Shown here: positions 149 through 48,037 of the stretch, piece by piece | How the letters are laid out: every line of letters begins with the position of its first letter | How positions within the stretch are numbered: position 1 is the first letter of the stretch | NCBI GenBank assembly: GCA_965226475.1 | Contig: CBDDDJ010000003.1 | Coordinates: 139,964 to 203,963, forward strand | Direction of reading: 5' to 3' | Length of the DNA: 64,000 nt | DNA from: Alphaproteobacteria bacterium | GTDB lineage: Bacteria > Pseudomonadota > Alphaproteobacteria > GCA-2731375 | Notes under the pieces: model-generated | Seen by the model: only the letters and a program-made list of their open reading frames with translations | The model's database searches: none | Told to the model about the DNA's origin: nothing | Program-made: the position numbers and the translations under genes

Positions 149-1369
149 TTGACAAAGACGGAGCGATCTTTCCATTGTAGGGCAAAGTGGGAGGGTGCGA
201 TCAAGCGAGAGCCCAACAAGATACTGGTGGTCGACGACGAGCCGGATGTGGAACAGCTCGTGCGCCAACGCATGCGCCGCGAGATTCGCGGCGGACAGTA
301 TGAGTTCGTGTTCGCGCGCAACGGGATCGAAGCGCTCGCGCGATTGAGGGAGCATCAGGACATCGACATGGTCCTATCGGACATCAACATGCCCGAGATG
401 GACGGCCTAACGCTGCTCGAGCAGATCCCGGCGGTCGATCCCAATGTGCGCTCGGTGGTGGTCTCCGCCTATGGCGACATGAAGAACATCCGCACGGCGA
501 TGAACCGAGGCGCCTTCGATTTCGTCACCAAGCCGATCGATTTCGAGGATCTGCGGCTCACCATCGGCCGCACCCTGGAGCATATCGGGCTGTGGCGCTC
601 GGCCCTCGAATCCCGGGACAAGCTGGTCGCGCTGGAAAACGAGCTCGATCTGGCCAGCCGGATGCAGCAATCGATCCTGCCGACGAGCTTTCCCGAGACC
701 GCTGGCTACCGCGTCTTCGCCAGGATGGAGCCGGCGCGCGCGGTCGGCGGGGACTTTTTCGACGTGCTGCCGCTGCCCGGCGATCGCGTCGGACTCGCGG
801 TGGCCGATGTCTCGGACAAGGGCGTCCCGGCGGCGTTGTTCATGATGTCCAGCTGCACCTTGCTCAGGGGTGCCGCGATCGGTCATTCCGATCCGGGCGA
901 TATGATGCGCGAGGTCAATCATCTGCTCTGCGAGAACAACGACGCAGCGATGTTCGTCACCGTCTTCCTGGCGGTCTTCGATCCGGCCAGCGGCGAGCTC
1001 GTTTATGTCAATGGCGGGCACAATCCGCCGCTCGTTCTGCACGTCGACGGGACCGCGACGCTACTGCCGACGACCGAGGGGGTCGCCCTCGGGATCGCCC
1101 CCGATGTCGAATACGCCAAGGGGTCGGTGATCCTGTCGCCGGACGAGGCGGTGGTCTTCTACACCGACGGCGTGACCGAGGCGGAGAACCGCGACGGCGG
1201 GCAGTTCGGCCTCGACCGGCTGCGCGAGCTTTTCGCCGCCGGCCCGCCCGGCGACGCCCGCGGCGTCACCGCAGCGGTGTTCGATGCGGTACACTCGTTC
1301 GCCGACGGCGCGCCCCAGTTCGACGACATCACCTGTCTGACGTTGTGGCGCGGTAAGGGGGAGGGGTGA
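149..1369 (+). CDS. Response regulator receiver domain fused to PP2C/SpoIIE-type serine phosphatase (RsbU/RsbY-like)
   Basis: ORF 29-1369. REC motifs (ILVVDDEPD, DMVLSDINMPEMDG, TKP) are followed by a SpoIIE/PP2C block (GDFFDV, VADVSDKGVPAALFM, FYTDGVTEAEN). There is no in-frame ATG before the REC domain; an in-frame TTG at 149 is proposed as the start, and the true start is uncertain. The stop overlaps the next gene start (GTGA). Confidence 0.8.
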   Translation: MTKTERSFHCRAKWEGAIKREPNKILVVDDEPDVEQLVRQRMRREIRGGQYEFVFARNGIEALARLREHQDIDMVLSDINMPEMDGLTLLEQIPAVDPNVRSVVVSAYGDMKNIRTAMNRGAFDFVTKPIDFEDLRLTIGRTLEHIGLWRSALESRDKLVALENELDLASRMQQSILPTSFPETAGYRVFARMEPARAVGGDFFDVLPLPGDRVGLAVADVSDKGVPAALFMMSSCTLLRGAAIGHSDPGDMMREVNHLLCENNDAAMFVTVFLAVFDPASGELVYVNGGHNPPLVLHVDGTATLLPTTEGVALGIAPDVEYAKGSVILSPDEAVVFYTDGVTEAENRDGGQFGLDRLRELFAAGPPGDARGVTAAVFDAVHSFADGAPQFDDITCLTLWRGKGEG

Positions 1370-1782
1370 GCGTGGAACTGTCGCTGCGCATGGAGACGAC
1401 ACTCGACGAGCTTCCCCGCATCAACGCGGTGATCGAGGCATTCGCGCGGCGGGAGAGCTGGTCTGCCCGGCTTGAGTTTCAGATCAAGCTGGTTATCGAG
1501 GAACTGGCGATCAATGTCGTGAAGCACGGCGGCGGCGCGGGCGGGGCGGCCGAAATCGAGCTGGTTTCCGATCCGAACCGGGTGACCATCGAATTCAGCG
1601 ACGGGGGCCGCCCTTTCGATCCGTTGACCGAGAGCCCCCCGCCCGACACCAGCTCTGGGATCGAGGACCGCCCCGTCGGCGGGCTCGGCGTCCATCTCGT
1701 GCGCACCATGGTCGAGGAGGCGAGCTATCGCCGCGAAGGGGGCCGAAACCGCCTGACCATGGTCAAGCGGAGGGATGGGTGA
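1366..1782 (+). CDS. RsbW/SpoIIAB-like anti-sigma factor serine protein kinase (GHKL HATPase_c)
   Basis: 138 aa with the GHKL signature (EELAINVVKHGGG ... IEFSDGGRPFDPL). GTG start at 1366 overlaps the stop of the phosphatase gene, and its own stop overlaps the GTG of the next gene. Confidence 0.75.
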   Translation: MSVELSLRMETTLDELPRINAVIEAFARRESWSARLEFQIKLVIEELAINVVKHGGGAGGAAEIELVSDPNRVTIEFSDGGRPFDPLTESPPPDTSSGIEDRPVGGLGVHLVRTMVEEASYRREGGRNRLTMVKRRDG

Positions 1783-2951
1783 CGGGCCGGCGCGGGGTCG
1801 CCTTTCTGGTGGTGGCCTTGGGCTTGGCGACACCGGCCTTGGCCGACGCGCCCGGAGTCTCCAGCGGGCGTGTCCTGTTCGGCCAGTCCGCGGCATTCAG
1901 CGGCCCGGCCCAGGATCTCGGCCGCAACATGCGGCTCGGGATCGAGGCGGCCTTTGACGAGGCGAACGCGCGCGGCGGCCTTTTCGGCCGCCGCCTCGAG
2001 CTGTTGTCGCTGGACGATGCCTATGAGCCGGAAGCCGCGATCGCCAACACCCGCCGACTGATCTTCGAGAACGGCGTGTTCGCCCTGATCGGCGCCGTCG
2101 GCACACCGACCTCGCGCTCGGCGACGCCGATCGCCGCTTCCGCCGGCGTGCCCTATGTCGCGCCCTTCACCGGCGCCGCGTTCCTGCGCGAGGCAAGGTG
2201 GCGCAACGTGATCAATCTGCGCGCCTCCTATTTCCAGGAGACCGAAGTAATGGTCGATCGGCTGATGCGCGATCTCGGCATCGACCGCATCGCGGTGTTG
2301 TATCAGGACGATTCCTTCGGCCGCGCGGGTTATCGCGGCGTGCGGCAGGCGCTCGGCCGGCGCGATTTGAAGCCGGTGGCGACCGGCGTCTACCCGCGCA
2401 ACACCACTGCAGTCAAAACCGCCCTTCTGGACCTGCGCGCTGGCGACCCCGGCGCGGTGATCCTGGTCGGCGCCTACCAGCCGGTCGCGACGCTAATCAG
2501 TTGGGCGCGGCACATCGGGTTCGAGCCGGTATTCATCACCATCTCCTTCGTCGGCAGTAACGCCCTGGCGCGCGCGCTCGGCCCGGCCGGGGCCGGCGTC
2601 TTTGTCACCCAGGTCGTGCCTTTACCGACGGAGGACCGGCCCCCCGTCGCCGGGGCCTATCGCCGGGCGCTGGCGGCGCACGCGCCCGAAGCGCGGCCCG
2701 GTTTCGTCTCCTTCGAAGGATATCTCGCCGGACGCCTCGCCATCGTCGCGCTCGAACTGTGCGGCCAGCGGCCCGATCGGACCTGTTTTCTCGACGGTCT
2801 GAGGCGTCTGGAGGCGGTCGATCTCGACGGTTTCGAACTGCGCTACGGCGCCGCCGACAATCAGGGGTCCGAAGCGGTTTTCCTGACGGTCATCGGTGAT
2901 GACGGACGCTATCATCCGGTCGAGACGCTCCGAGACGCGCCGCGGCGATGA
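1779..2951 (+). CDS. Periplasmic ligand-binding protein, LivK/Peripla_BP_6 type (type-I PBP) with signal peptide
   Basis: GTG start. N-terminal signal peptide (VAFLVVALGLATPALADA), then PBP type-I motifs (LFGQSAAFSGPAQDLG, ALIGAVGTPTS). Translationally coupled to the downstream kinase (ATGA overlap at 2948). Confidence 0.75.
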   Translation: MTGRRGVAFLVVALGLATPALADAPGVSSGRVLFGQSAAFSGPAQDLGRNMRLGIEAAFDEANARGGLFGRRLELLSLDDAYEPEAAIANTRRLIFENGVFALIGAVGTPTSRSATPIAASAGVPYVAPFTGAAFLREARWRNVINLRASYFQETEVMVDRLMRDLGIDRIAVLYQDDSFGRAGYRGVRQALGRRDLKPVATGVYPRNTTAVKTALLDLRAGDPGAVILVGAYQPVATLISWARHIGFEPVFITISFVGSNALARALGPAGAGVFVTQVVPLPTEDRPPVAGAYRRALAAHAPEARPGFVSFEGYLAGRLAIVALELCGQRPDRTCFLDGLRRLEAVDLDGFELRYGAADNQGSEAVFLTVIGDDGRYHPVETLRDAPRR

Positions 2952-5125
2952 TCGAATTGTCCAAACGCCTGCTGCGAAGCTGCTTTCGCATCACCACGCA
3001 GCTCAATCTCGGTATTGGCGCGGCCGTCGCCTTCACCATCGTCGCCAGCCTGGTCGGTTGGATCTCCTTCGAGCGGGTCGGCGACATCCAACGTCGGGTC
3101 AACGAGGGCAGCGTTCCCGAGATCGTGGCCGCCTTCACGGTGGCGCGGCAGAGCGGCGCCCTGGTGGCCGCGGCCCCGCGCCTGACCACCGCGGCCACGC
3201 CCGGCGACCTGGCGCGCATCGCCGGCAAGATCGCCGGGGACCGCATGGCCTTCGAGGCGCAACTGACGGGGCTGGTGGAGTTGGAGCAGGACGCGGCGCG
3301 CTCGCGGCCGATCCGCCAGCGCGGCGAGGCGCTGATCGCCAGTATCGAGGCGATCGAGGCCTCGATGTCGGAGCGCTTCGAGTTGGACGCACTGCGGCAG
3401 GCGCGGCGCCAGGAGTTGGCGTCGCTTCGCGGCGAGCTGACCGGCCTTCTGGTCCCGTTGATCGACGATCAGCTGTTCTACACGATGACCGGCTACCGCA
3501 ATCTCGGCGAGGGACCGGCACCGCGCACGCGGCATTTTACGCCGGCGGAGATCAACCGCTATCGTCATCTGGCCGAGCTTCGGGCCGCCGCCACGATTGG
3601 GGCGCAGCTTCTAGCGACCGCTTTCAACGTCTCGGATGCAGCCCTGCTGGAGCCGTTGCGGGAGCGCTTCGAGGCCGCGGCGCGCGGCATCGAGCGACGC
3701 CTAGCGGCGCTCGGGACGGCGCCGGCGCGCCAGCGGCTCGGCCCGCCCTTCGCCCGGCTGATCGAGCTCGGCGCCGGGCCCAATGGAGGGTTCGGCCTGC
3801 GGGCCCGGGAGATCGCCCTCGAACGGCGGCAGCGAGACCTCCTGCAGCGCAATCGCGGCCTCGGCATCGAGCTCGTGGCGGCGGTCAAGAGTCTGGTCAG
3901 CGCCGCCCGCGCCAGCGCCGAAGCGGCCACCCGCGCCGCGGCCGAGGCCATCCTCGCCGGGCGCAATCTGCTGCTGCTGATCAGCGCCGCCAGCATCGTC
4001 AGCGCGGTGTTGATCGCCTGGTTGTTCGTCGGACGCGTGTTGTCGCGCCGCCTGGGCCGGCTTTCCGAGCGGATGCGCGGCATGGCCGAGGGCGATCTCG
4101 AAGGCGCGGTGGAGATCGCAGGGCACGACGAAGTGGCGGATATGGCGGCGGCGTTGGAGGTCTTTCGCCGCCACGCGCTCGAGGTTCAGCGGCTGAACCT
4201 GGTGGAGAAGCTGGCCGAGAAGCTGCGCGGCAAGAACGACCAGCTCGTGCAGGCGCTGGCCGAGCTGGAGCGAACGCAAGATCAGATCGTCATGCGCGAG
4301 AAGCTGGCGGCGCTTGGCGAACTCACCGCCGGAGTCGCCCACGAGATCAAGAACCCGCTCAATTTCATCAAGAATTTCTCGGAAGTCTCGGAGGAGTTGT
4401 TGCAGGAGATGTTGGCCGAGATCCAGAGGGCCACCGGCGAGGGCGACATGGAGCCGGACGAGGAAAGCCGGGAGCTGATCGAGGAGATCGGCGGCGATCT
4501 TACCGGCAACCTGAAACGCATCCACGAGCATGGCGAGCGGGCCAACCAGATCGTGCAGTCCATGCTGATGATGGGCAGCGCCTCGGGCGAGCGGCGGTCG
4601 ACCGATATCAACGCCCTGCTCTCCGAGCACGCCCGGCTCGCCTATCACAACGCGCGCGTGAGCGATCCGGCCTTCCGCCTGGACGTCGAAGAAGACTTCG
4701 ACCCCGAGCTCGGCGAATGCGAAGTCATTCCCCAGGACCTCGGACGGGTGTTCCTGAACATGGTAAGAAATGCCTGCTACGCGACTGACGAGAAGTGCCG
4801 CGCCACCGTCCGCGACCAGCCCGCCGGCGAAGCGGCGGCGGACTATGAGCCGAGGTTGCGGCTGGCGACCCGGCGCCTGACGGACCGTCTCGAAATCCGC
4901 ATTCGCGACAACGGCGGCGGCATTCCACCCGACATCATCGACAAGATATTCAATCCTTTTTTCACCACCAAGCCGACGGACCAGGGTACCGGGCTGGGCC
5001 TTTCCCTGTCGAACGACATCGTCCGCCAACATGGGGGAGATATCCGGGTCGATTCCGAGCCCGACGCGTTTACCGAAATGATCATCGAACTGCCGGCGAA
5101 CGCGGCCCACCCCCCGTCCTGCTAA
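2948..5125 (+). CDS. Sensor histidine kinase (2 TM helices, large periplasmic region, HAMP, HisKA, HATPase_c)
   Basis: 725 aa. TM1 near the N-terminus, and TM2 (LLLLISAASIVSAVLIAWLFVG) followed by HAMP. H-box (AHEIKNPLNFI) and G-boxes (DNGGGIP, GTGLGLSL). Confidence 0.85.
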   Translation: MIELSKRLLRSCFRITTQLNLGIGAAVAFTIVASLVGWISFERVGDIQRRVNEGSVPEIVAAFTVARQSGALVAAAPRLTTAATPGDLARIAGKIAGDRMAFEAQLTGLVELEQDAARSRPIRQRGEALIASIEAIEASMSERFELDALRQARRQELASLRGELTGLLVPLIDDQLFYTMTGYRNLGEGPAPRTRHFTPAEINRYRHLAELRAAATIGAQLLATAFNVSDAALLEPLRERFEAAARGIERRLAALGTAPARQRLGPPFARLIELGAGPNGGFGLRAREIALERRQRDLLQRNRGLGIELVAAVKSLVSAARASAEAATRAAAEAILAGRNLLLLISAASIVSAVLIAWLFVGRVLSRRLGRLSERMRGMAEGDLEGAVEIAGHDEVADMAAALEVFRRHALEVQRLNLVEKLAEKLRGKNDQLVQALAELERTQDQIVMREKLAALGELTAGVAHEIKNPLNFIKNFSEVSEELLQEMLAEIQRATGEGDMEPDEESRELIEEIGGDLTGNLKRIHEHGERANQIVQSMLMMGSASGERRSTDINALLSEHARLAYHNARVSDPAFRLDVEEDFDPELGECEVIPQDLGRVFLNMVRNACYATDEKCRATVRDQPAGEAAADYEPRLRLATRRLTDRLEIRIRDNGGGIPPDIIDKIFNPFFTTKPTDQGTGLGLSLSNDIVRQHGGDIRVDSEPDAFTEMIIELPANAAHPPSC

Positions 5126-5133
5126 GGATAGGT

Positions 5134-5472
5134 TCAGCCGCCCGTCTCGGTCAGCGCCTCCGCCCTGGTGCGGTGAATCTTGATGATCTTGTCGAATCCC
5201 GCCATATCGAAGACCTCCCCAATCGGTTCGGCGAGCGAGCACAAGGCGAACTTCGCGTCGCGTTTCCCGAGGTCCTTGGCGATCAACAGAATCGCTCTGA
5301 GCCCCGCGCTGCTGACGTAAGAGACGCCTTCAAGATCCATGATCACCGCGGCGTCCTCCTCGCTGATGGCGGACTTCATCGTATCCTCGAACTCGCGGGC
5401 GGTGACGCCATCGATACGGCCCTCGACCTCGGCGACCAGGGTTCCGTCTTGTCGTTCGGTTCTCACTTCCAT
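5134..5472 (-). CDS. STAS-domain anti-sigma factor antagonist (RsbV/SpoIIAA-like)
   Basis: 112 aa, SpoIIAA-like (IDGVTAREFE ... MDLEGVSYVSSAGLRAILL). Convergent with the kinase gene, with the gene ends 8 bp apart. Confidence 0.8.
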   Translation of the reverse strand: MEVRTERQDGTLVAEVEGRIDGVTAREFEDTMKSAISEEDAAVIMDLEGVSYVSSAGLRAILLIAKDLGKRDAKFALCSLAEPIGEVFDMAGFDKIIKIHRTRAEALTETGG

Positions 5473-5528
5473 CGCCGTGTCCTTTTTTTTGCTCTCCGCC
5501 CGCTTCGGCTCCGCAAGTGCTGCGGCGG

Positions 5529-5867
5529 CTACAGCGCCGCCTCGCCGGTCTCGCCGCCATGGATCCGCCGCGTGCCAACCACCTCGCAGACGGAGATCTT
5601 GCCGTCGTCGTCCTGGTTGGTGCCGGCGGCTCGGCGGATCGCCTCCATCACCGGTTCGACCAACTCGTCAGTCACCACCGCCTCGATCTTCACCATCGGC
5701 ATGAAAGCGATCCGGTATTCCGTGCCCCGGTGCATCTCGGCATGACCCATCTGCCGGTCGAACCCCTTGACCTCGCTCGCAGTCAGGTCGGTAACCCCGA
5801 CCTCGACCAGCGCCGCGTGTACTGGGTCGAGCTTGTGCGGTTTGACCACCGCCCTGATCAGCTTCAT
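5529..5867 (-). CDS. glnK: Nitrogen regulatory protein P-II
   Basis: 112 aa from MKLIRAVVKP. T-loop with conserved Tyr51 (RGTEYRIAF) and C-terminal RIHGGETGE. Immediately downstream of amtB. Confidence 0.9.
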   Translation of the reverse strand: MKLIRAVVKPHKLDPVHAALVEVGVTDLTASEVKGFDRQMGHAEMHRGTEYRIAFMPMVKIEAVVTDELVEPVMEAIRRAAGTNQDDDGKISVCEVVGTRRIHGGETGEAAL

Positions 5868-5891
5868 CAGCTTAGCGTCCTCCATGCCCGA

Positions 5892-7193
5892 TCAGAAGTC
5901 ATAACCCCTTTCGCCATGGGCAGCAAGATCGAGGCCCACCAATTCATCTTCCTCGTCGACCCTGAGACCGCCGGTCAGCGCCGCCGTGATCTTCACGATC
6001 GCGAAGGTGGCCAGGGCCGACCACGCCGCGGTGGCGAGCAGACCGACCACCTGAACGCCGAACTGCCTGGCGATCGTCATATTCTCGGCCAAGCCGTTCC
6101 CGCCCAGCGCCTCGACGGCGAGGCCGGCGACCAGCAGTGAACCAAACATGCCGCCGACGCCATGCACGGCAAAGACGTCAAGGGAGTCGTCGATCTTCCA
6201 TCGCTGCTTGACCAGTTCTGTGGCGAAGAAGCAGACCGCGCCCGCGGCCACGCCCAGGATCAAGGCGCCGACCGGGCCGATGAAGCCCGAAGCGGGCGTG
6301 ACCGTGGCGAGACCGGCGATGACGCCGGTCGCGGCGCCGACAACAGAGGTCTTGCCGAACTTGATCCACTCGGTAGCCGACCAGGTTACGGCCGCGGCCG
6401 CCGCGGCGATGTGGGTCGCGGCGATGGCCATGCCGGCGCCGCCATCGGCAGCCAGTTGACTGCCGCCGTTGAAGCCGAACCAGCCGACCCAGAGCAGCGC
6501 TGCCCCCGCCGCCGTCATGCCGGAATTGTGCGGCGGATGGATCTGATTGGGAAAGCCGCGGCGGCCGCCCACCATGACAGCGATGACAAGCGCCGATACG
6601 CCGGCGGTCGTGTGCACCACCAGGCCACCGGCGAAGTCCATGATTCCGAGCGCGCTGAGCCAACCGCCGCCCCAGATCCAATGGCAGACCGGCGCGTAGA
6701 CCACGATGAGCCACACCCCGCTCAAAATGAGCACGGCCTGGAACTTGACGCGCTCGACATAGGCGCCGACCATCAGGGCCGGGGTGATGATGGCAAAGGT
6801 CATCTGGAAAACGGCAAAAACGATCTCGGGAATCGAGCCGTTCAAAGCGTCCGGCGTCACGCCGGCGAAGAAAGCCTTGCCGAGACCGCCGATGATGCCG
6901 CCGACGCTGTCGGCAAAGGCCAGGCTGTAGCCGAGGATCAGCCAGAGCAGGCTCGCAACGCAGGTGATCGCGAAACATTGCATGATCACCGACAGCACGG
7001 CCTGGGAGCGCACCAGCCCGGCATAGAACATCGCCAGGCCCGGCAGGGTCATCAACAGGACCAGCGCGCTGGCGACGATGATCCATGCGCTGTCGCCGGC
7101 GCTGAAAGCTGCCTCCGCCGCCCAAGCCGGCTGAGGCAGGACGGAAGCTAACGGAATCGCGAAAGCTGGGCCGATAGGCCGACGCACGATCAT
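5892..7193 (-). CDS. amtB: Ammonium transporter
   Basis: Amt family motifs (DFAGGLVVHTTAGVSAL), signal peptide, and an AGGAGGGGG RBS before the ATG at 7193. The ORF-track extension to 7262 is judged to be upstream read-through. Confidence 0.9.
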   Translation of the reverse strand: MIVRRPIGPAFAIPLASVLPQPAWAAEAAFSAGDSAWIIVASALVLLMTLPGLAMFYAGLVRSQAVLSVIMQCFAITCVASLLWLILGYSLAFADSVGGIIGGLGKAFFAGVTPDALNGSIPEIVFAVFQMTFAIITPALMVGAYVERVKFQAVLILSGVWLIVVYAPVCHWIWGGGWLSALGIMDFAGGLVVHTTAGVSALVIAVMVGGRRGFPNQIHPPHNSGMTAAGAALLWVGWFGFNGGSQLAADGGAGMAIAATHIAAAAAAVTWSATEWIKFGKTSVVGAATGVIAGLATVTPASGFIGPVGALILGVAAGAVCFFATELVKQRWKIDDSLDVFAVHGVGGMFGSLLVAGLAVEALGGNGLAENMTIARQFGVQVVGLLATAAWSALATFAIVKITAALTGGLRVDEEDELVGLDLAAHGERGYDF

Positions 7194-7330
7194 CCCCCTC
7201 CTCTGACACCCGACCAGCAAATCATTTCTGGATGAACACCGCAACCCCGGTGTCGCTAACACACGATATGACCGCCGTAGGTACCATGTGATCTGTCCGG
7301 TTTAGAACGTCGCCTTCGAGGAGGGCGGCG

Positions 7331-8512
7331 ATGAAGCGGGCCGAGGTGTTGCAAGGACTACGGCAGATGAAGTTCGAGGAGATTCTGGAGCGCGCGAAGC
7401 GGCGGCGACTGAGCCAGGCGGAGGCGGCGTCGATCCTGGGGATGAGCGAGCGAACGTTCCGGCGCTGGCGGGGTCGCTTTGAGGCGGAAGGCGCGGAGGG
7501 TCTGTATGACCGCCGGCTGGGCAAGGTCTCGGGGCACCGGGTGCCGGTGGACACGGTGATGGAGGTTCTGGAGTTGTTCGACACGCGCTACTGGGACTTC
7601 ACGGCCAAGCACTTCCACGAGAAGCTGCTCGATGAGCACGGCTTCACGCGGAGCTACAACTGGGTCCGCCTGACGCTCCAGGCCCACGGGCGCAAACGTC
7701 CGGCACCGCGGCGAGGCGCGCACCGGCGCAAGCGGCCGCGCCGCGCCCTGCCCGCCATGATGCTGCACCAGGACGGCTCGACCCACCAATGGGTTCCCGG
7801 GCAGTGGTGGGACCTGATCGTCACCATGGATGACGCAACCAGCGAGATCTACTCGGCCTTCTTCGTCGACGAAGAGGGGACCATGAGCAGCTTCCGGGCC
7901 CTGGGCGAGGTGATCGAGGTCCGGGGGCTGTTCTGCTCGCTCTACGCCGACCGGGCCTCGCACTACTGGCACACGCCCGAGGCCGGCGGCAAGGTGGACA
8001 AGAACAACCCGACCCAGGTGGGCCGAGCCCTGGGCCAGCTGGGCATCGAACTGATCCCGGCCTACTCCCCCGAGGCCCGGGGGCGCTCGGAGCGCATGTT
8101 CGCGACATTGCAGAATCGCCTGCCGCAGGAACTGCGCTTGGCCGCCATCACCACGATGGCCGAGGCCAACGCGTTCCTGCGCGAGATTTATCTGCCCCGC
8201 CACAACGCCCGTTTCGCGGTGCCGGCCGAAGCCGAGGGCTCGGCCTTTGTCCCCTTCACCGGATCGCTCGACGACATCCTGTGCATCCAGGAGGACCGGA
8301 TCGTCGGCAACGACAACACGGTGCGCTACAAGCGGCTGGTGCTGCAGATCCCGGAGGATCGCCACCGCCGCCATTACGTCAAGGCATCGGTGCGGGTCCA
8401 CGAATACTCCGGCGGCACCCTGGCGGTCTTCCACGGCCCGCGCCGGCTGGCCCGATATCAGGCCGACGGCACCGTCCTCGACGAAACCAAGAACAGCAGA
8501 GCGGCCGCGTGA
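7331..8512 (+). CDS. ISNCY-family DDE transposase (N-terminal HTH + integrase core)
   Basis: 393 aa (SERTFRRWR HTH; MMLHQDGSTHQW ... LIVTMDDATSEIY ... SPEARGRSERMF). Identical to the protein at 46560-47741. Confidence 0.8.
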   Translation: MKRAEVLQGLRQMKFEEILERAKRRRLSQAEAASILGMSERTFRRWRGRFEAEGAEGLYDRRLGKVSGHRVPVDTVMEVLELFDTRYWDFTAKHFHEKLLDEHGFTRSYNWVRLTLQAHGRKRPAPRRGAHRRKRPRRALPAMMLHQDGSTHQWVPGQWWDLIVTMDDATSEIYSAFFVDEEGTMSSFRALGEVIEVRGLFCSLYADRASHYWHTPEAGGKVDKNNPTQVGRALGQLGIELIPAYSPEARGRSERMFATLQNRLPQELRLAAITTMAEANAFLREIYLPRHNARFAVPAEAEGSAFVPFTGSLDDILCIQEDRIVGNDNTVRYKRLVLQIPEDRHRRHYVKASVRVHEYSGGTLAVFHGPRRLARYQADGTVLDETKNSRAAA

Positions 8513-8672: not shown

Positions 8673-10107
8673 TGTCGCTAACACACGATATGACGGTCTA
8701 TGTAAGCGGCCGCGTGAACCGGTCTATGTAACAGATGATCTGTCCGGTTTTAGATTTCCTCCAAATCTGGAGGAATCGGATGCGCCGGACGGATGCAGTT
8801 GCAGGGACTGAGATTGATGAAGTTCGAGGATGTCTAGGGACGCTGTTATCGGGGTGATTTGAGCCAGGCCGAGGCCTCGGAGATCCTGGGCATGTCGGAG
8901 CGGACGTTCCGGCGCTGGCGGGAGCGCTATGAGGCCGAGGGTGCCGAGGGTTTGTACGACCGGCGCCTTGGGCGGGTCTCGGCGCGCCGCGCGCCGGTGG
9001 ACGAGGTGATGCGGGTGCTGGAGCTGTTCGAGACGCGCTACCCGGACTTCACGGCCAAGCACTTCCACGAGAAGCTGGTCTGCGAGCATGGCTTCGGGCT
9101 GAGCTACAACTGGCTTCGCCTGAGCTTGCAGGCGCCGGCAAGATCAAGCCGGCGCCCCGGCGCGGGGCGCACCGCCGGAAGCGGCCGCGCCGACCGGTGG
9201 TGGGGATGATGCCGCACCAGGACGCCTCGAGCCACGAGTGGGTTGCGGGCCAGTGGTGGGACCTGATCGTGACCATGGACGATGCGACATCGGAGGTCTA
9301 TTCGGGCTTCTTCGTTGCCGAGGAGGGCACGATGAGCACGTTCCGCGGGCTCGGCGAGGTGATCGCCGAAAACGGGCTGTTCTGCTCGCTCTACGCCGAT
9401 CGGGCCTCGCACTACTGGCACACGCCCGAGGCAGGCGGCGGTGTGGACAAGGACAACCCGACCCAGGTCGGCCGGGCCTTGGCGCAGCTCGGCATCGAGT
9501 TGATCGCGGCCTATTCGCCGCAGGCCCGGGGCCGCTCGGAGCGCATGTTCGGGACCTTGCAGAAGCGCCTGCCCCAGGAGCTGCGCCTCGCCGGGATCGC
9601 CACCATGGCCGAGGCCAATCGCTTTCTCGAGGAGCTCTTCTGGCCGGCGCACAACGCCCGCTTCGCCCGCCCGGCCGCGGACACCGGCTCGGCCTTCGTG
9701 GCTTTTGCCGGCACGCTCGAGGACATCCTCTGCGCCCAGGAGGACCGCGTCGTCGCGGGCGACAACACCTTGCGCGACAAGCGCCGCACGCTGCAGATCC
9801 CGGCCGATCGCCACCGCCACCACTACGTCAAGGCGCAGGTCCGGGTGCACGAATATCCCGACGGCCACCTGGCCGTCCTCCACGGACCCAGGTGTCTGGC
9901 GCGCTACCGCGCCGACGGCGAAACCATCGACGATGACAGGCTCCAGGCCGCGTGACCCGCTTCGACGCGACCGACCCCGGGCCTGTGGATAAGTGGACAG
10001 CTCGGCAAAGCAGCCGACCTGACCACTTCCCCACAGGCCCAACCACCACAACAGAAGCGGTCAATTCATATGGTACATAAAGCGGTCAACTCAGTTTGTT
10101 ATCGACA
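8673..10107 (+). mobile_element. Diverged ISNCY-like element, copy 2, in tandem 17 bp after copy 1
   Basis: Same terminal architecture (TGTCGCTAACAC ... ATCGACA) and the same internal hairpin, but with divergent sequence. Confidence 0.7.
8780..9955 (+). pseudogene. ISNCY-like transposase, disrupted (early stop and frameshift)
   Basis: The ATG at 8780 reads into TAG/TGA within 25 codons. Homology resumes in ORFs 8859-9209 and 9197-9955 in different frames. Confidence 0.7.
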
Positions 10108-10183: not shown

Positions 10184-10819
10184 TTGGCGGCCGGACCGTT
10201 CACCTCAGACCCTGACATGAAGAAGAAACCAATGGACAAAGCCAACGCGAAGCGGATGTCGGAGAAAGCTCCCGAGCATGTTGGAGACAACGTGTTCACT
10301 CCGCACAACTTCGACGACGTCGACCTAAGACAATTCCTCCGCACCTACCTTTGGGTCATCTACGTTGCCGGCTTCCGCAACGCGGTCGTGGAGAAACACT
10401 TTGATACCATCAAAGATGCGTTTCACGACTTGGACCTGGACAAAATCGTCGCCGTGACGTCGATAAACGCCGACGCGCTCCCGATCCGTAACCAACGGAA
10501 GGCGGACGCGTTCCTGCGGGGGTGCGAATTAATTCACGCCGAAGGCTGGCAAGCGTTCCAACAGCGACTGAATGTGCGCGGTCAGGCCGCACTCGCAGAG
10601 CTTCCCTGGATGGGCCCCGCGACCAAACAGCTCATGGTGCTAGTCCTTGGCATTGAGGACACGGAAAAGGCCGACATCTGGATCAAGCAGTGCGCCGATG
10701 CTTGTTCCGCGACCGTGGACCAAATAGTCAGATTCCTCAGGCGGGAATACGGACTGACCCGCCAACAGGTGGATAATTACTTGTGGCGATACTGTCGCGA
10801 CAACCAACGGTTGCCATGA
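10184..10819 (+). CDS. Hypothetical protein, putative HhH-GPD-superfamily DNA glycosylase-like (MagIII/Tag-like)
   Basis: 211-aa ORF in a distinctly lower-GC block. Helix-hairpin-helix-like motif (LPWMGPATKQLMVLVLG). The family call is tentative. Confidence 0.4.
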   Translation: MAAGPFTSDPDMKKKPMDKANAKRMSEKAPEHVGDNVFTPHNFDDVDLRQFLRTYLWVIYVAGFRNAVVEKHFDTIKDAFHDLDLDKIVAVTSINADALPIRNQRKADAFLRGCELIHAEGWQAFQQRLNVRGQAALAELPWMGPATKQLMVLVLGIEDTEKADIWIKQCADACSATVDQIVRFLRREYGLTRQQVDNYLWRYCRDNQRLP

Positions 10820-10856
10820 ATGCTTGATCGCTGCGCAGGTGGATAATTACTTGTGG
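10766..10856. repeat. Two 21-bp direct repeats CAGGTGGATAATTACTTGTGG (10766-10786 and 10836-10856)
   Basis: Exact repeat straddling the stop codon of the 211-aa ORF. Confidence 0.8.
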
Positions 10857-10984
10857 TGGCCGGTTGCTCGATCGCACTGATCAACCGGTTGATTTGGTGC
10901 TCAGTCTGACTGTCCGCCTCCAAGTCCGTCGACCGCGCGCCGCCGGCTTCACCGCCCTCGCCCGCCGGATCGACGCTGTCGGGA

Positions 10985-12033
10985 GCAATAATTTTGGCTC
11001 AATTCGTGAATTGTATGCGTCACCTTGTTACGGCGGCGGCGAGGCAGGCTCGGTCATTGGCGCCGGGGGCGAGGCCGACGAGGTGGAACCAGCTCAGGTA
11101 GTTGTCCAGATAGCGGGTGGCGATGCCGCGGCGGGGACGCAGGAAGTCCTTCAACCGGCTGTGGCGGCTGTTCACCGTCTGCACATGCAGATCGCCCCGA
11201 ACCCGTTCCCCCATCGAGCGGTTGAGTGCTTCGTGGCTCACCCCGAGCGCGGCGGCGCAAGGTGGATAGCTCGCGCCACCGTCGGAGACCAGCAGGGCGT
11301 CCTTCGCGACCACCGGGTCGAGAGCAGCCGTGAGCGCCGCCGCGTCGACCCTGGGCAGCACCGCGCTCACCGTCGGCCCGCTCCGGTCCGCCGCCATGAG
11401 AACCGGCACCTGCTCGCGCGAGAGGCCGCGCTTCTTCGCCTTGCCGCCCCGCCGCCGTGCCTTGCGTCCCAGCCCGCGCGCGCCCTTCCGGCTCTCCAGG
11501 ACGTAGGTCTCGTCCGCTTCCACGATCCCCTTGAGCACCTCCGAATCGCTCCGCGCCGCCGCCAGAAACCGGTGACGCCAGCGGAACGCCGTGCTCACCG
11601 CCACGTCGCAGCGCGCCGCCGAGGCCTTCACCGTCTCCCCCTCCGCCAGCGACGCCCCGAACGACAGCCAGCGTTCCTTGTGGTGCAGGCCCGACAGCGG
11701 CGTACCGGTCAGCGCGTTGAAGGTCCTGCCGCAGCCCTTGCACTGGTAGCGCCGCAGACCCCGCGCCATACCGCGCGAAACCGCCCCTTCGCTCGCGCAG
11801 TGCGGACAGCGCCGGGCCTCGTCCACACCAAGCTCGATCGCGGCCTTCGATGCCTCGCCTTCGCTCCGGCCCAACAGCACCGCGAGCGCCTCGTGCCGCT
11901 GCACGCGCGTCAGCCCGCGCGCCGCCGAAAGCCACACCTGGAAACCCTTGCCGTCCATGACCCAACCTCCTGACATTCCGGGCATTCTATCACAAATGCA
12001 TACGTTTCACGAATTGACCCATAATTTTAGTGC
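10985..12033 (-). mobile_element. IS1595-family insertion sequence
   Basis: Imperfect terminal IRs (core TCAATTCGTGAA.nGTATGC) at about 10985-11025 and 11995-12033 flank a 312-aa transposase. Confidence 0.7.
11020..11958 (-). CDS. IS1595-family transposase (N-terminal zinc ribbon + DDE domain)
   Basis: CPHCAS ... YQCKGCGRTF zinc ribbon, then an ISXO2-like DDE region (EADETYV ... LVSDGGASY). AGGAGG RBS before the ATG at 11958. Confidence 0.8.
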   Translation of the reverse strand: MDGKGFQVWLSAARGLTRVQRHEALAVLLGRSEGEASKAAIELGVDEARRCPHCASEGAVSRGMARGLRRYQCKGCGRTFNALTGTPLSGLHHKERWLSFGASLAEGETVKASAARCDVAVSTAFRWRHRFLAAARSDSEVLKGIVEADETYVLESRKGARGLGRKARRRGGKAKKRGLSREQVPVLMAADRSGPTVSAVLPRVDAAALTAALDPVVAKDALLVSDGGASYPPCAAALGVSHEALNRSMGERVRGDLHVQTVNSRHSRLKDFLRPRRGIATRYLDNYLSWFHLVGLAPGANDRACLAAAVTR

Positions 12034-12270
12034 TGATGCGGTTTCCGTGGACTTCGTCCTGACTTGGCCCAGTCGAGGTTCGAGGTGTCGGTGCGGCGGA
12101 CGGATGGTTTGCTCCCGTTCATTTCAACTGAACTCGTGGACACCTCCATCAACGGGCAAGTCATGCAACAAGGCCGGGCCGGTATTCGGAGAGATGCCGC
12201 ATGACGGCAGTCAGCACGACCTTAAGCGAGGGAATGCCGAGGGCTGTAGCCCGCTTCATTGGGCGAAAAC

Positions 12271-12474
12271 TCAGTCACCCGTTGGCTCGATCCCCCTTTC
12301 TTTGTCGAGGAGACGCTCGCACTGGGTAAGGACACGGAGAGCCACATCCATCGCCAGGTAGTCACCGCTACTCCGCAGTTCCTCAACGCGATCCTGGGCA
12401 ATACCTATGGCCTCTCGGCCGTAATGCTGGACCAACTCCCGTGCTGAGCGTCCGATCTCAGTCTTTGTAATCAC
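12271..12474 (-). CDS. Hypothetical small protein (67 aa)
   Basis: ORF in low-GC IS-scrap DNA with no recognisable domain. Weak support. Confidence 0.25.
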   Translation of the reverse strand: MITKTEIGRSARELVQHYGREAIGIAQDRVEELRSSGDYLAMDVALRVLTQCERLLDKERGIEPTGD

Positions 12475-12571
12475 CTGCGTTCAGCCTCGATGTCTTTTCG
12501 CAAAATATCTACACGGTGGCGAATTGCGGCAACCTGGACGCATCGGCTCAATCGAGACGCCGACCACGAAA

Positions 12572-12856
12572 TTAACCCGGCGCGCCACATCCTCGCCAAA
12601 CTTCATCCATTATCTCCTGTTGCTGCGTCAGGTCGAGAATATGCTGTTCGTACGTGGCACCGAGATCTGTCATGAGATAGTTGGTTAGGCGAGCCTTCGA
12701 TCCCGCCAATGGTTGCGTCCGGCGTGCCGCCGACTGATAGGCGCCGGCCGGTGTCGAGATCGACCGGCCGGCAAAGACCTCGTGAAAGTCAAAGCGCATG
12801 GGCTGCATCAACGAGATCGTTTCCTCGCTCACCCGTGTGTTCGTGCCGGAATACAT
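12572..12856 (-). CDS. Hypothetical small protein (94 aa)
   Basis: ORF in lower-GC DNA adjacent to the previous one, with no recognisable domain. Weak support. Confidence 0.2.
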   Translation of the reverse strand: MYSGTNTRVSEETISLMQPMRFDFHEVFAGRSISTPAGAYQSAARRTQPLAGSKARLTNYLMTDLGATYEQHILDLTQQQEIMDEVWRGCGAPG

Positions 12857-14574: not shown

Positions 14575-16089
14575 ATGGAAGGTGGGAGGATGTATACCGT
14601 GGACCTTTATCCACGCGTTCGGCTGGCGTGCCATGTTGATGGGCTGAGTCAGCGAGAGGCGGCGAGTCGGTTTGGCATGGCGCGAGAGACGGTGAGGAAG
14701 ATGCTCGGGCACTCGGAGCCGCCTGGCTACCGCCGCCGCCAGCCACCGAAGCGCCCGAAGCTGGACCCCTTCAGGGATATCATTGACCGTATTCTGGAAG
14801 AGGACCGAACGGTTCACTGCAAGCAGCGCCACACGGCGAAGCGGATATTCGAGCGTCTTCGCGACGAGCATGGCTTTGCGGGCAAACAGACCATCGTCAA
14901 GGATTACGTCCGGGAACGGCGCCGTCGCCAGCGTGAGATGTTCGTGCCGCTGGCGCACCCTCCGGGTCACGCTCAGGCGGACTTTGGCGAGGCGGATGCG
15001 ATCATCGCCGGCGTCAAGCGGCGGGCGCATTTTTTCGCCATGGACCTTCCCCACGGCGATGCCTGCTTCGTTGCGGCCTACCCGGCGGCGGCGACGGAGG
15101 CCTGGCTGGACGGCCACAACGGGGCCTTCGCCTTCTTCGGCGGCATTCCCCAATCGATTCTCCACGACAATGACAAGTGCCTGGTGTCGCGCATCCTGCC
15201 GGACGGCACGCGGCAACGAACGCGAGCGTTCAGCGGGCTTCAATCCCATTATCTGTTCCAGGATCGATATGGCCGCCCCGGCAAGGGCAATGATAAGGGC
15301 AAGGTGGAGGGGCTGGTCGGTTACGCCCGCCGGAACTTCATGGTTCCCATCCCCCGGTTTGCGAGCTGGGACGCCTTCAACGCTCACCTGGAACATCAAT
15401 GTCGGAGACGGGAAAGCGACGTCTTGCGCGGCCATCGCGAGACCATCGGCGAGCGGTTCGGATGCGACCGGGAGAAGCTGATGGAATTGCCGCCGGCGCC
15501 TTTCGAGGCCTGCGACAAGGAGGGCACGCGGGTCAATTCGCTCTCCCTGGTGCGCTATCGGGGCAACGACTACTCGGTGCCCGTCGCCTACGGTCACCAA
15601 GAGGTCTGGGTCCGTGGCTACGTGCACGAGGTGGTCATCGGCTGCGCCGCCGAGGTCATCGCCCGGCACCCACGCTCTTACGAACGAGAGGACCTGATCT
15701 TCGAGCCGATCCACTATCTGGCCTTGCGGGAGCGGAAGATCGGTGCCCTCGATCAAGCCGCCCCGCTGGCCGGTTGGAAGCTGCCCGAGGCGTACGCCAA
15801 CCTGCGCCGCTTGCTTGAAGCCCGCATGGGCAAGGCCGGCAAGCGGGAGTACGTGCAAGTGCTCCGTCTTCTGGAGACCTTTGCCCTTGAGGAGGTGCAC
15901 GGTGCCATCCGCGATGCCCCGCGGTTAGGCGCCATCGGCTATGATGCGGTCAAGCACCTGGTGCTGTGTCGCGTCGAGCGTCGACCCCCCCGGCTCGACT
16001 TGAACGTTTATCCCTATCTGCCGCGGGCCCAGGTGACCACCACATCCGCCGCCAGCCACATGAGCCTGCTGGGCGGAGCGGCGCCGTGA
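14575..16089 (+). CDS. istA: IS21 transposase IstA
   Basis: 504 aa with an HTH and a DDE integrase core. Overlaps istB by 4 bp. Confidence 0.9.
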   Translation: MEGGRMYTVDLYPRVRLACHVDGLSQREAASRFGMARETVRKMLGHSEPPGYRRRQPPKRPKLDPFRDIIDRILEEDRTVHCKQRHTAKRIFERLRDEHGFAGKQTIVKDYVRERRRRQREMFVPLAHPPGHAQADFGEADAIIAGVKRRAHFFAMDLPHGDACFVAAYPAAATEAWLDGHNGAFAFFGGIPQSILHDNDKCLVSRILPDGTRQRTRAFSGLQSHYLFQDRYGRPGKGNDKGKVEGLVGYARRNFMVPIPRFASWDAFNAHLEHQCRRRESDVLRGHRETIGERFGCDREKLMELPPAPFEACDKEGTRVNSLSLVRYRGNDYSVPVAYGHQEVWVRGYVHEVVIGCAAEVIARHPRSYEREDLIFEPIHYLALRERKIGALDQAAPLAGWKLPEAYANLRRLLEARMGKAGKREYVQVLRLLETFALEEVHGAIRDAPRLGAIGYDAVKHLVLCRVERRPPRLDLNVYPYLPRAQVTTTSAASHMSLLGGAAP

Positions 16090-23138: not shown

Positions 23139-24653
23139 ATGGAAGGTGGGAGGATGTATACCGTGGACCTTTATTTACGCGTTCGGCTGGCGTGCCATGT
23201 TGATGGGCTGAGTCAGCGAGAGGCGGCGAGTCGGTTTGGCATGGCGCGAGAGACGGTGAGGAAGATGCTCGGGCACTCGGAGCCGCCTGGCTACCGCCGC
23301 CGCCAGCCACCGAAGCGCCCGAAGCTGGACCCCTTCAGGGATATCATTGACCGTATTCTGGAAGAGGACCGAACGGTTCACTGCAAGCAGCGCCACACGG
23401 CGAAGCGGATATTCGAGCGTCTTCGCGACGAGCATGGCTTTGCGGGCAAACAGACCATCGTCAAGGATTACGTCCGGGAACGGCGCCGTCGCCAGCGTGA
23501 GATGTTCGTGCCGCTGGCGCACCCTCCGGGTCACGCTCAGGCGGACTTTGGCGAGGCGGATGCGATCATCGCCGGCGTCAAGCGGCGGGCGCATTTTTTC
23601 GCCATGGACCTTCCCCACGGCGATGCCTGCTTCGTTGCGGCCTACCCGGCGGCGGCGACGGAGGCCTGGCTGGACGGCCACAACGGGGCCTTCGCCTTCT
23701 TCGGCGGCATTCCCCAATCGATTCTCCACGACAATGACAAGTGCCTGGTGTCGCGCATCCTGCCGGACGGCACGCGGCAACGAACGCGAGCGTTCAGCGG
23801 GCTTCAATCCCATTATCTGTTCCAGGATCGATATGGCCGCCCCGGCAAGGGCAATGATAAGGGCAAGGTGGAGGGGCTGGTCGGTTACGCCCGCCGGAAC
23901 TTCATGGTTCCCATCCCCCGGTTTGCGAGCTGGGACGCCTTCAACGCTCACCTGGAACATCAATGTCGGAGACGGGAAAGCGACGTCTTGCGCGGCCATC
24001 GCGAGACCATCGGCGAGCGGTTCGGATGCGACCGGGAGAAGCTGATGGAATTGCCGCCGGCGCCTTTCGAGGCCTGCGACAAGGAGGGCACGCGGGTCAA
24101 TTCGCTCTCCCTGGTGCGCTATCGGGGCAACGACTACTCGGTGCCCGTCGCCTACGGTCACCAAGAGGTCTGGGTCCGTGGCTACGTGCACGAGGTGGTC
24201 ATCGGCTGCGCCGCCGAGGTCATCGCCCGGCACCCACGCTCTTACGAACGAGAGGACCTGATCTTCGAGCCGATCCACTATCTGGCCTTGCGGGAGCGGA
24301 AGATCGGTGCCCTCGATCAAGCCGCCCCGCTGGCCGGTTGGAAGCTGCCCGAGGCGTACGCCAACCTGCGCCGCTTGCTTGAAGCCCGCATGGGCAAGGC
24401 CGGCAAGCGGGAGTACGTGCAAGTGCTCCGTCTTCTGGAGACCTTTGCCCTTGAGGAGGTGCACGGTGCCATCCGCGATGCCCCGCGGTTAGGCGCCATC
24501 GGCTATGATGCGGTCAAGCACCTGGTGCTGTGTCGCGTCGAGCGTCGACCCCCCCGGCTCGACTTGAACGTTTATCCCTATCTGCCGCGGGCCCAGGTGA
24601 CCACCACATCCGCCGCCAGCCACATGAGCCTGCTGGGCGGAGCGGCGCCGTGA
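23139..24653 (+). CDS. istA: IS21 transposase IstA
   Basis: 504 aa, identical to copy A except L13 for P13. Confidence 0.9.
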   Translation: MEGGRMYTVDLYLRVRLACHVDGLSQREAASRFGMARETVRKMLGHSEPPGYRRRQPPKRPKLDPFRDIIDRILEEDRTVHCKQRHTAKRIFERLRDEHGFAGKQTIVKDYVRERRRRQREMFVPLAHPPGHAQADFGEADAIIAGVKRRAHFFAMDLPHGDACFVAAYPAAATEAWLDGHNGAFAFFGGIPQSILHDNDKCLVSRILPDGTRQRTRAFSGLQSHYLFQDRYGRPGKGNDKGKVEGLVGYARRNFMVPIPRFASWDAFNAHLEHQCRRRESDVLRGHRETIGERFGCDREKLMELPPAPFEACDKEGTRVNSLSLVRYRGNDYSVPVAYGHQEVWVRGYVHEVVIGCAAEVIARHPRSYEREDLIFEPIHYLALRERKIGALDQAAPLAGWKLPEAYANLRRLLEARMGKAGKREYVQVLRLLETFALEEVHGAIRDAPRLGAIGYDAVKHLVLCRVERRPPRLDLNVYPYLPRAQVTTTSAASHMSLLGGAAP

Positions 24654-25602: not shown

Positions 25603-26164
25603 CCTCGAACAGCAACTCGGCGCCGGTCTTGGAGAGCGGCACGAAACCCAGCTCGTCGATGATGAGGAGCTTGAGGTTGGCGAGCTTCTTCTGGAACCTC
25701 AGCAGCTGTCTGTCATCGCGCGCCTCCATGAGCTCGTGGACCAGGGCGGCGGCGGTGGTAAAGCCGACCGACAGGCCCTTCTGGCAGGCGGCAAGGCCGA
25801 GGCCGAGCGCAATGTGACTCTTGCCGGTGCCGGAATTGCCCAGAGCGATCACATTCTCCCGGCGCTCGATGTACTCGCATCGTGCCAGCTCGAGGACCAG
25901 CGCCTTGTTGAGCGAGGCGATCGCTTTGAAGTCAAAGCTGTCCAAGCTCTTGACGGTCGGGAACTTCGCTTGCCTGATTCGCCGCTCGACCATGCGGCGC
26001 TCGCGGTCGATCAGTTCCAGCTCGGCCAGGCGGAGCAGGTAGCGCACGTGGTCGGCGCCCTCGCTGGCACACTGGCGAGCCAGCTTGTCGTACTCCCTGA
26101 GGAAGGTCGGCAGCTTGAGGGCCTTCAGGTGATGGGCCAGCAACACCTGCGGCGTGTCGCTCAC
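25603..26164 (-). pseudogene. istB: IstB truncated at about codon 187 (copy C); the 232-aa ORF 25586-26284 is the same truncated istB with an artefactual 45-aa N-terminal extension
   Basis: Identical to IstB up to LLFEV, then reads into the terminus of copy B (STAE stop). Confidence 0.75.
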
Positions 26165-38573: not shown

Positions 38574-38616
38574 GGCGTGCTTGTTCCTCGTCTACGGGAT
38601 AGGGGGGATGTCGGGC

Positions 38617-40416: not shown

Positions 40417-40426
40417 GCGCGATCCC

Positions 40427-47811: not shown

Positions 47812-48037
47812 GTTAGCGACAGCCTTCCGTGCCCGGCTTGCCCGCGTCGCGCACGTCGACTAGAATTTTCCCGACGCTCGGTGTTGGCGGGTGTCGTCGG
47901 CACAGTCGCTTAACGTGAAATGCCTAAACACGAGATTCGTGCCCTAGCTGCCCAAAGTAATTCGCCGGAATGAATATCCGGCACCAAAGCGCAAACGGCG
48001 GTTGGCGGTTGACGGGTCGGAATGCACGGAGGATACC

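Follow-up and report, generated by a model that had tools for sequence, protein, structure and literature searches.

A 64,000-nt window of an alphaproteobacterial genome (contig CBDDDJ010000003.1, positions 139,964 to 203,963 of the forward strand) carries the ammonium channel gene amtB, followed by a gene for a PII signalling protein and a gene for a STAS-domain protein of the anti-sigma-antagonist type. Facing this string is an operon coding for a receiver-PP2C phosphatase, an RsbW-like serine kinase, a LivK-type solute-binding protein (SBP) and a HAMP histidine kinase (HK), referred to below as the module. Judged by sequence and gene order, the amtB–PII–STAS string and the module are one conserved seven-gene unit found across phyla. 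The system is built from known parts, and it is the linkage itself that is new to the literature we searched. The parts are laid out as follows (positions are those of the window; aa, amino acids; SD, Shine-Dalgarno):

7193-5892, minus strand: amtB, 433 aa; Pfam Ammonium_transp, 1e-108
5868-5891, minus strand: amtB–PII spacer, 24 nt by direct reading
5867-5529, minus strand: PII gene, 112 aa; Pfam P-II, 1e-20 (1.3e-20), 74 bits against a cut-off of 25
5473-5528, minus strand: PII–STAS spacer, 56 nt, with an A8 tract at 5490-5483 and an AAGGA SD-like motif ahead of the STAS ATG
5472-5134, minus strand: STAS gene, 112 aa; Pfam STAS, 3e-21, 75.6 bits
29-1369, plus strand: receiver-PP2C (SpoIIE) phosphatase; Response_reg 3e-25, SpoIIE 9e-51; start codon uncertain, relatives being 380-446 aa long
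1366-1782, plus strand: RsbW-like serine kinase/anti-sigma-type HATPase, 138 aa; HATPase_c_2 3e-24
1779-2951, plus strand: LivK-type periplasmic SBP; Peripla_BP_6 3e-57
2948-5125, plus strand: HAMP HK; HAMP, HisKA and HATPase_c domains and a TorS-like periplasmic sensor region

Open reading frames, Pfam domains and direct reading bore out the co-directional order of amtB, PII and STAS, with gaps of 24 and 56 nt, that an earlier note on this DNA had described. The four facing plus-strand genes overlap by 4 nt each.

The earlier note had set conservation of this synteny as a test, and the string is indeed conserved across Alphaproteobacteria, with all seven genes collinear in Chloroflexi-type contigs. 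A STAS profile search of species-dereplicated genomes gave 80 loci, which were sorted by tblastn with the seven window proteins. Since calling the longest open reading frames on high-GC loci gave antisense artefacts (cluster c3 was the antisense of STAS), the synteny is based on tblastn and on tables of called genes. An Amt-family gene lies directly upstream of a member of the STAS subfamily in 22 of the 80 genome loci. AmtB–PII–STAS together with the convergent module is found in L001-L005 of the genome set and on strain contigs L098-L102, and more distant Alphaproteobacteria (L007, L014, L022, L050 and L057) have AmtB–PII–STAS without the module. In L014, the gene directly downstream of the string (10377-12782) codes for an 801-aa protein of unusual architecture, in which SBP_bac_3 is combined with an autotransporter beta-domain. 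STAS and the convergent module occur without Amt at 30 loci, from Gammaproteobacteria, Binatia, Bryobacterales, Nitrospinota and others. Three Amt-less gammaproteobacterial loci (L013 at 9491-9805, L025 and L049) have a small DUF2007 gene just upstream of STAS, after trpB-trpA; DUF2007 is described as a 'putative prokaryotic signal transducing protein' (1e-16 in L013). Locus L112 carries three tandem STAS genes (7001-8266; 53, 43 and 39% identity to the query), followed by convergent HK–SBP–RsbW–receiver-PP2C.

Anchoring on PII, by exact-protein look-ups of PII homologues, extended the unit beyond the Alphaproteobacteria. On Chloroflexi-type contigs (L086-L092), the seven genes run collinearly on one strand in the order Amt–PII–STAS–receiver-PP2C–RsbW–SBP–HK. 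These loci were reached from three PII clusters (P0166, P0170 and P0150) whose flanking genes differ, and one collinear PII cluster carries the NCBI label Chloroflexi. Compared to the window, the collinear clusters show 72-74% identity in AmtB, about 73% in SBP and 64-69% in receiver-PP2C. Because identities of 64-74% are high for different phyla, we infer that the seven-gene unit moves horizontally as a block. Other PII-anchored loci have Amt–PII–STAS followed by unrelated genes (PII P0137, L081-84), and two contigs ridden with insertion sequences (IS) have Amt–PII followed by transposases, with no STAS. A PII-anchored metagenome scan gave zero confirmed loci.

A second Amt, only 30-34% identical to the window AmtB, lies directly upstream of STAS at 12 loci. 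By Pfam and NCBIfam it is a true Amt and falls into the 'marine subtype' (TIGR03644); we saw this arrangement in Gammaproteobacteria and Binatia. The module is convergent to the marine-subtype Amt–STAS pair in L034, L094 and L109 and collinear with it in L153. The genes are often ordered RsbW–Amt–STAS–STAS, as in Rariloculaceae-type Gammaproteobacteria, where the rsbW stop overlaps the amt start in the sequence TAATG. Genes of 149-159 aa upstream of the marine-subtype Amt in L094 and L096 were considered as a hidden RsbW and dropped, as they had no Pfam hit at E ≤ 1. The earlier proposal of a functional tie that joins the STAS gene both to amtB–PII and to the facing operon is supported by the conserved linkage and by the involvement of a second Amt family.

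Metagenomes were scanned with the same STAS profile, and the loci were divided into subfamily members (≥48% identity) and generic STAS (33-47% identity). The marine-subtype Amt lies upstream of STAS in 5 of 17 informative subfamily loci, one of which (L153) has the collinear order Amt–STAS–receiver-PP2C–RsbW–SBP–HK; a further subfamily locus of this set has glnE upstream. Generic STAS genes, whose neighbours are mostly RsbW and/or PP2C genes, adjoin Amt, PII or GlnE in 0 of 28 informative metagenome loci (Fisher test, p = 0.005; p = 0.0004 with the genome set pooled in). A different nitrogen gene, glnE, which codes for the glutamine synthetase adenylyltransferase, is found directly upstream of STAS and co-directional with it in L006 (6857-9892), L008, L048 and L111, with gaps of 106-153 nt; the Pfam GlnE match in L006, L008 and L048 is 8e-116. 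Two of these glnE loci, L006 and L008, have STAS proteins that rank among the nearest relatives of the window STAS. With Amt and glnE as neighbours, the STAS subfamily thus repeatedly adjoins two classical PII targets.

These data bear on the possibility that the adjacency is meaningless, that is, that STAS belongs to the facing operon and that amtB–PII was placed beside it by rearrangement in an IS-rich genome. The window is indeed IS-dense, IS elements flank the block, and most genomes with the module have no adjacent Amt. However, the linkage recurs in Alphaproteobacteria, Gammaproteobacteria, Binatia and Chloroflexi-type contigs, and it involves two Amt families and varied flanks; generic STAS controls lack such neighbours, and the block stays intact while the surrounding IS vary. 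Conserved synteny largely refutes this explanation, and we regard it as highly improbable.

The element nearest to the block is:

7331-8512, plus strand: IS481-like transposase with HTH_28, HTH_29 and LZ_Tnp_IS481 domains, just upstream of the amtB leader

This transposase is outside the system and marks the boundary of the seven-gene block. The exact sequence of the window STAS is present on many contigs, and the seven-gene block is intact in five strains of one species (L098-L102), where the flanks are Transposase_mut, IS481-like, DDE_Tnp_1 or none; L102 equals the window in all seven proteins. Upstream insertions stop about 150 nt before amtB, with different IS families at the same spot, and spare a conserved block of about 45 nt that is described below. 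In the window as a whole, the 393-aa IS481-like transposase is present in two full copies (7331-8512 and 46560-47741) and in partial copies (8859-9955 and 45211-46182), and a 504-aa transposase-like open reading frame in three copies (14575-16089, 23139-24653 and 26161-27675). Two further stretches (36489-40572 and 48002-54256) carry genes that, by the appearance of their N-terminal sequences, are putatively for nitrogen-compound catabolism or uptake: a hydantoinase/oxoprolinase-like pair, a complete LivK-HMGF-type ABC transporter and an amidase-like gene.

Judged by their sequences, the signalling proteins of the unit look like competent parts of a partner switch. The STAS gene product is, by profile, a single-domain RsbV/SpoIIAA-type protein: it scores 78.6 bits against TIGR00377 (anti-sigma-antagonist superfamily; cut-off 53.45), and its profile matches the structures of TM1442 (5e-17) and SpoIIAA (1e-15). 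Ser55, which aligns with SpoIIAA Ser58 in the DSSG motif, is invariant in the 37 sequences of alignment A1 and is the predicted phospho-site. Cognate partners are close by, in the HATPase_c_2 protein (1366-1782) and the receiver-SpoIIE protein (29-1369), and the pairing of STAS with the kinase/phosphatase module is kept in 36 of the 80 genome loci. In the translation of the RsbW-like protein, read directly, the N box (EELAINVVKHG), the G1 box (DGGRPFD) and the G2 box (GGLGVHLV) are recognizable. The nearest NCBIfam model for the receiver-PP2C protein is of the Pseudomonas RssB type, far under its cut-off. The Peripla_BP_6 domain and a best PDB match to 4kv7 (6e-70), an uncharacterised 'probable Leu/Ile/Val-binding protein', bear out the earlier assignment of a LivK-type binding protein to the facing operon; similarity to UrtA is weak. 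The HK matches TorS_sensor_domain weakly (6e-4, 19.7 bits against a cut-off of 27) and the TorS equivalog at 151 bits against 676. Sigma-factor Pfam families were absent from the gene tables covering ±10 kb in five strains, and from the collinear clusters.

The amtB product is, on sequence evidence, an ammonium channel with predicted transport activity. It scores 408 bits against NCBIfam TIGR00836 (cut-off 343), and direct reading of the translation finds the equivalents of D160, H168 and H318 (DFAGGLVVH, FAVHGVGG). We take the start to be the ATG at 7193, which has GGAGG just 5' of it, although the longest open reading frame extends to 7262; gene callers chose the 433-aa form in relatives. 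The window AmtB is 72-78% identical to STAS-linked AmtB proteins of other Alphaproteobacteria and Chloroflexi-type contigs, and it belongs to the AmtB-type clade that accompanies a PII with methionine in place of Lys58 (K58M). Throughout, the STAS-linked Amt proteins have Ammonium_transp as their sole domain and the usual lengths of 433-464 aa, with no transducer fused. In L001, unrelated sequence (8190-8363) replaces the 5' end of amtB, which is possibly N-terminally disrupted there.

The adjoining PII gene had been labelled glnK, a label that did not survive closer comparison. The best PDB matches of its product are GlnB, GlnZ and GlnK (about 1e-31 to 1e-27), but the protein reaches only 113.1 bits against the GlnB equivalog (PRK10858, cut-off 202) and 112.7 bits against the GlnK equivalog (PRK10665, cut-off 181). 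Compared to GlnB and GlnK, including an alignment to PDB 1hwu, it carries the substitutions F11H, G37D, K40M, Y46H, L56M and K58M, and it retains R47, Y51 and Q39. Its B-loop, the ATP-binding element of canonical PII proteins, is altered (GTNQDDDGKIS against the canonical TGxxGDGKIF), and in its C-loop (RIHGGE against RxR) the second arginine is replaced by histidine. Alignment of 17 subfamily members (A3) showed that the motif FMPMV, which holds K58M, is invariant in 17 of 17, as are the T-loop residues R47, which plugs AmtB, and Y51, the uridylylation site; Chloroflexi-type members additionally lack Q39, the GDGKIF B-loop and the C-loop. In PII proteins, K58 forms a hydrogen bond with 2-oxoglutarate and, in the ADP state, a pair with Q39, and it is R47 that closes the Amt pore as a plug (PMC3198391). 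By these sequence features, the protein is a non-canonical PII of retained fold and is probably blind to 2-oxoglutarate. Because R47 and Y51 are kept and K58 is replaced, it may still dock on AmtB while no longer reading 2-oxoglutarate. Phosphorylation at residue 49, of the cyanobacterial type, was considered and dropped, since the window has T49 but relatives have M, R or A.

We then considered how the STAS gene might be expressed. The features noted earlier in the PII–STAS spacer, an A8 tract and a small hairpin before the STAS ATG with no U-run, are there, and the spacer fold is weak (-14.7 kcal/mol). The earlier view that no convincing terminator separates PII from STAS agrees with this fold and with a consensus scan of 4900-7700, in which the two terminator-like sites both fall within amtB, a chance-level number, and no promoter-like (sigma-70-like) site was found. 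An Rfam search of 4900-7700 at E ≤ 1 gave zero matches, and a riboswitch or leader RNA at amtB–PII–STAS was therefore rejected. In ten related loci, the PII–STAS gap is 36-89 nt with an SD-like motif in each. None of these ten spacers has a hairpin followed by a U-run, so an intrinsic terminator was rejected for the relatives as well. Even near-identical strains do not share the A8 tract (L001, AAGATTAAGG; L002, AAGTCAAAGG). With such short gaps in ten loci, read-through from PII into STAS is plausible, and the co-transcription suggested in the earlier note remains a plausible reading of the gaps, the SD-like motifs and the lack of a hairpin-plus-U-run. On the other side of STAS, just 8 nt separate its stop codon from that of the convergent HK gene (5125-5134), compared with a gap of about 35-220 nt in other lineages. 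No terminator-like site was found between HK and STAS on either strand, so that transcripts of the two operons would collide, and antisense effects or transcriptional interference are possible.

The region upstream of amtB contains a further conserved element:

7205-7250, minus strand: conserved block of about 45 nt, CCGGGGTTGCGGTGTTCATCCAGAAATGATTTGCTGGTCGGGTGTC, a candidate promoter/operator

This block is shared by the window, L002, L003, L005 and L100, and is duplicated in L004, where alignment A2 shows a tandem copy (GGGGTTGCCGTGTCGATCC...) at about 8100-8230. It is not a sigma-54 site by regular-expression and mismatch scans, and by eye we found no convincing fit to a sigma-70, sigma-54 or ECF (extracytoplasmic function) consensus that would assign it a promoter class. 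More generally, no sigma-54 -24/-12 match was found within 2 mismatches in window positions 5100-7400, and a sigma-54 regular expression found none in 11 regions upstream of amtB (the window and ten relatives); a sigma-54/NtrC promoter of amtB was rejected on these two scans. The only hit among relatives, in L007, is at the start of the coding sequence rather than upstream. By direct reading, distant relatives have CTTGnC-N17-CTATnn boxes upstream of amtB that are typical of alphaproteobacterial sigma-70 promoters. The search for sigma-54 sites upstream of amtB in relatives, which the earlier note had called for, thus came back empty in all ten, and its suggestion that STAS is produced under nitrogen limitation has no sequence support; by these scans, induction by nitrogen limitation is unsupported rather than refuted.

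This weakens an explanation by transcriptional coupling only, in which NtrC and sigma-54 would co-induce STAS with amtB–glnK, and STAS would titrate RsbW and so free a distant sigma factor, with no contact between the switch proteins and AmtB or PII. Such coupling would agree with the short 56-nt gap, its SD-like motif, the lack of terminator or promoter consensus and the similar gaps in relatives, and amtB–glnK operons are classically Ntr-induced. Yet besides the missing -24/-12 element and the sigma-70-like boxes of relatives, the PII is non-canonical (K58M, GlnK equivalog failed) and no sigma gene lies within ±10 kb. Co-induction also leaves unexplained why STAS follows glnE, why it follows a second Amt family and why rsbW and amt overlap. 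We therefore consider transcriptional coupling alone quite unlikely. The pattern of neighbours, as read from the sequences, points to a link between proteins, in which Amt, PII and GlnE would be the partners or targets, and not just to co-induction of the genes.

A canonical partner-switch operon has the sigma gene that it targets next to rsbW. In the present loci no sigma gene is nearby, and Amt, PII and GlnE are the only additional genes that recur, which is why we tentatively propose that the STAS/RsbW switch targets AmtB–PII and, in other genomes, GlnE, an assignment to which we give a little less than an even chance. Amt as output would also suit a module that has an input, SBP and HK, and needs an output, and in some operons amt overlaps rsbW at the place where a sigma gene usually sits. 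In the mechanism that we propose, the LivK-type SBP would signal the presence of a nitrogen compound outside the cell to the HAMP kinase, which would phosphorylate the receiver of the PP2C protein and thereby set phosphatase activity. STAS Ser55 would be phosphorylated by the RsbW-like kinase and dephosphorylated by the phosphatase, and unphosphorylated STAS would capture RsbW. What the switch releases or engages would most likely be the AmtB–PII complex and, in other genomes, GlnE. In this way, the availability of alternative nitrogen sources would gate ammonium uptake and assimilation post-translationally. STAS itself would most likely be expressed by read-through of amtB–PII transcription, so that its dose tracks that of the channel. 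Of the nitrogen-source circuit first suggested for this DNA, the functional link and the nitrogen theme hold, whereas co-induction by nitrogen limitation and the glnK label do not.

Several observations weigh against AmtB–PII as the target. The target of STAS/RsbW is read from gene neighbourhood only, and a sigma factor or another target may be encoded elsewhere in the genome. No Amt adjoins STAS in 30 of the 36 species-level genomes with STAS and module; the link would thus be facultative or act in trans, and where STAS stands alone it requires a promoter of its own. A STAS promoter may also lie within the PII gene, beyond what consensus scans can exclude. The STAS-linked Amt proteins resemble ordinary transporters, with the twin histidines present and no special regulatory extension. 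Finally, decayed PII remnants occur in two subfamily metagenome loci, L104 and L105, where STAS and at least part of the module persist beside them with no amtB. In L105 (6072-6578), as in L104, a frameshifted PII of the K58M type (KAVIRPHRL...SFDRQ...) lies about 480 nt upstream of STAS; amtB is missing from L105, and a threonine-dehydratase-like gene lies upstream on the opposite strand. All four module genes are kept in L105, and HK only on the short L104 contig. These remnants suggest that an ancestral amtB–PII–STAS string was eroded while STAS and the module stayed.

The same neighbourhood evidence would also apply if Amt and PII were the input, the channel and PII reporting ammonium flux by sequestering STAS/RsbW at the membrane and so adding an ammonium signal to that of SBP and HK, with the output elsewhere. 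AmtB–GlnK is well established as a device that sequesters proteins such as DraG and TnrA at the membrane, and the PII keeps R47 and Y51, which are needed for AmtB docking (PMC3198391). Amt proteins have moreover been repurposed as receptors: in the Amt-like ammonium receptors Ks-Amt5 and Sd-Amt1, an Amt module is combined with a cytoplasmic signalling device, the transducer being fused (PMC5764959, PMC11152129). The window Amt is likewise associated with a cytoplasmic signalling device, but its signalling proteins are separate genes and it lacks the N1/N2 receptor signature, QX6EX15NX2D[FT]X54-60TX2[ST] (PMC11152129). None of the STAS-linked Amt proteins matched N1/N2: marine-subtype proteins read C-E-N-L-Y where the signature has Q-E-N-D-[FT], and in the window AmtB the motif is missing altogether. 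The absence of the signature weakens the sensor reading, as do the dedicated sensor (SBP and HK) already present in the module and the lack of any alternative output gene conserved nearby. We judge an input role of Amt/PII unlikely, though less so than transcriptional coupling alone.

Compared to known systems, the unit combines familiar pieces in a different way. With the RsbU/RsbV/RsbW and SpoIIE/SpoIIAA/SpoIIAB switches of Bacillus it shares a STAS protein whose phospho-serine is conserved, a HATPase kinase of the RsbW type and a PP2C phosphatase. In contrast to those switches, the window cluster has no sigma gene and its type has Amt, PII and GlnE as neighbours, and its phosphatase bears a two-component receiver fed by an SBP-dependent HK. 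Receiver-controlled PP2C proteins that act on STAS are known from HsbR/HsbA and RssB/RssC of Pseudomonas, CrsR/CrsA of Shewanella, SypE/SypA of Vibrio and the IcfG cluster of Synechocystis, and the outputs of such systems are not necessarily sigma factors. As in these systems, the window pairs a receiver-PP2C with STAS; unlike in them, the kinase stands on its own as a 138-aa protein and is not a fused domain, and the input is a LivK-type SBP with a HAMP HK. No report that any of these systems lies beside an ammonium channel, PII or GlnE was found in the literature searched.

The amtB–glnK operon and the AmtB–GlnK complex resemble the window in pairing an Amt gene with a PII gene that keeps the T-loop residues R47 and Y51. 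They differ from it in that the window PII has K58M, F11H, G37D, K40M and Y46H and fails the equivalogs, in that STAS is appended and in that a sigma-54 promoter is lacking. Like TorT/TorS, the unit couples an SBP gene translationally to an HK with a weakly TorS-like periplasmic region; here, however, the SBP is LivK/Peripla_BP_6 rather than TorT, the HK is not a hybrid, and the TorS match is under the curated thresholds. In the full text of the literature searched, we found no description of STAS or partner switching linked to an ammonium transporter or PII, and an Amt-focused review and an Amt research article make no mention of STAS or anti-sigma proteins.

Bacterial ammonium uptake is thought to be gated almost wholly by GlnK/PII, which reads 2-oxoglutarate and ATP. 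The unit described here, conserved across phyla, instead joins Amt channels to a partner switch based on serine phosphorylation and to a sensor for solutes outside the cell, with a PII that lacks the 2-oxoglutarate lysine or is absent. In its fullest form, which we consider rather doubtful, the partner switch would be a second layer of nitrogen control, parallel to GlnD/PII or replacing it, that directly gates two Amt families and the glutamine synthetase adenylyltransferase; STAS would take GlnK's genomic and functional slot in operons without PII, and the K58M, 2-oxoglutarate-blind PII would act as an adaptor where present. Record names suggest that many of the source genomes are marine, in part sponge-associated, metagenome-assembled genomes, a setting in which ammonium handling is ecologically central. 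If functional, the unit would place nitrogen uptake under the control of external nitrogen-source sensing rather than of internal 2-oxoglutarate. It would also give an orphan class of partner-switching systems a concrete output other than a sigma factor, and define a K58M PII subfamily with a testable new role.

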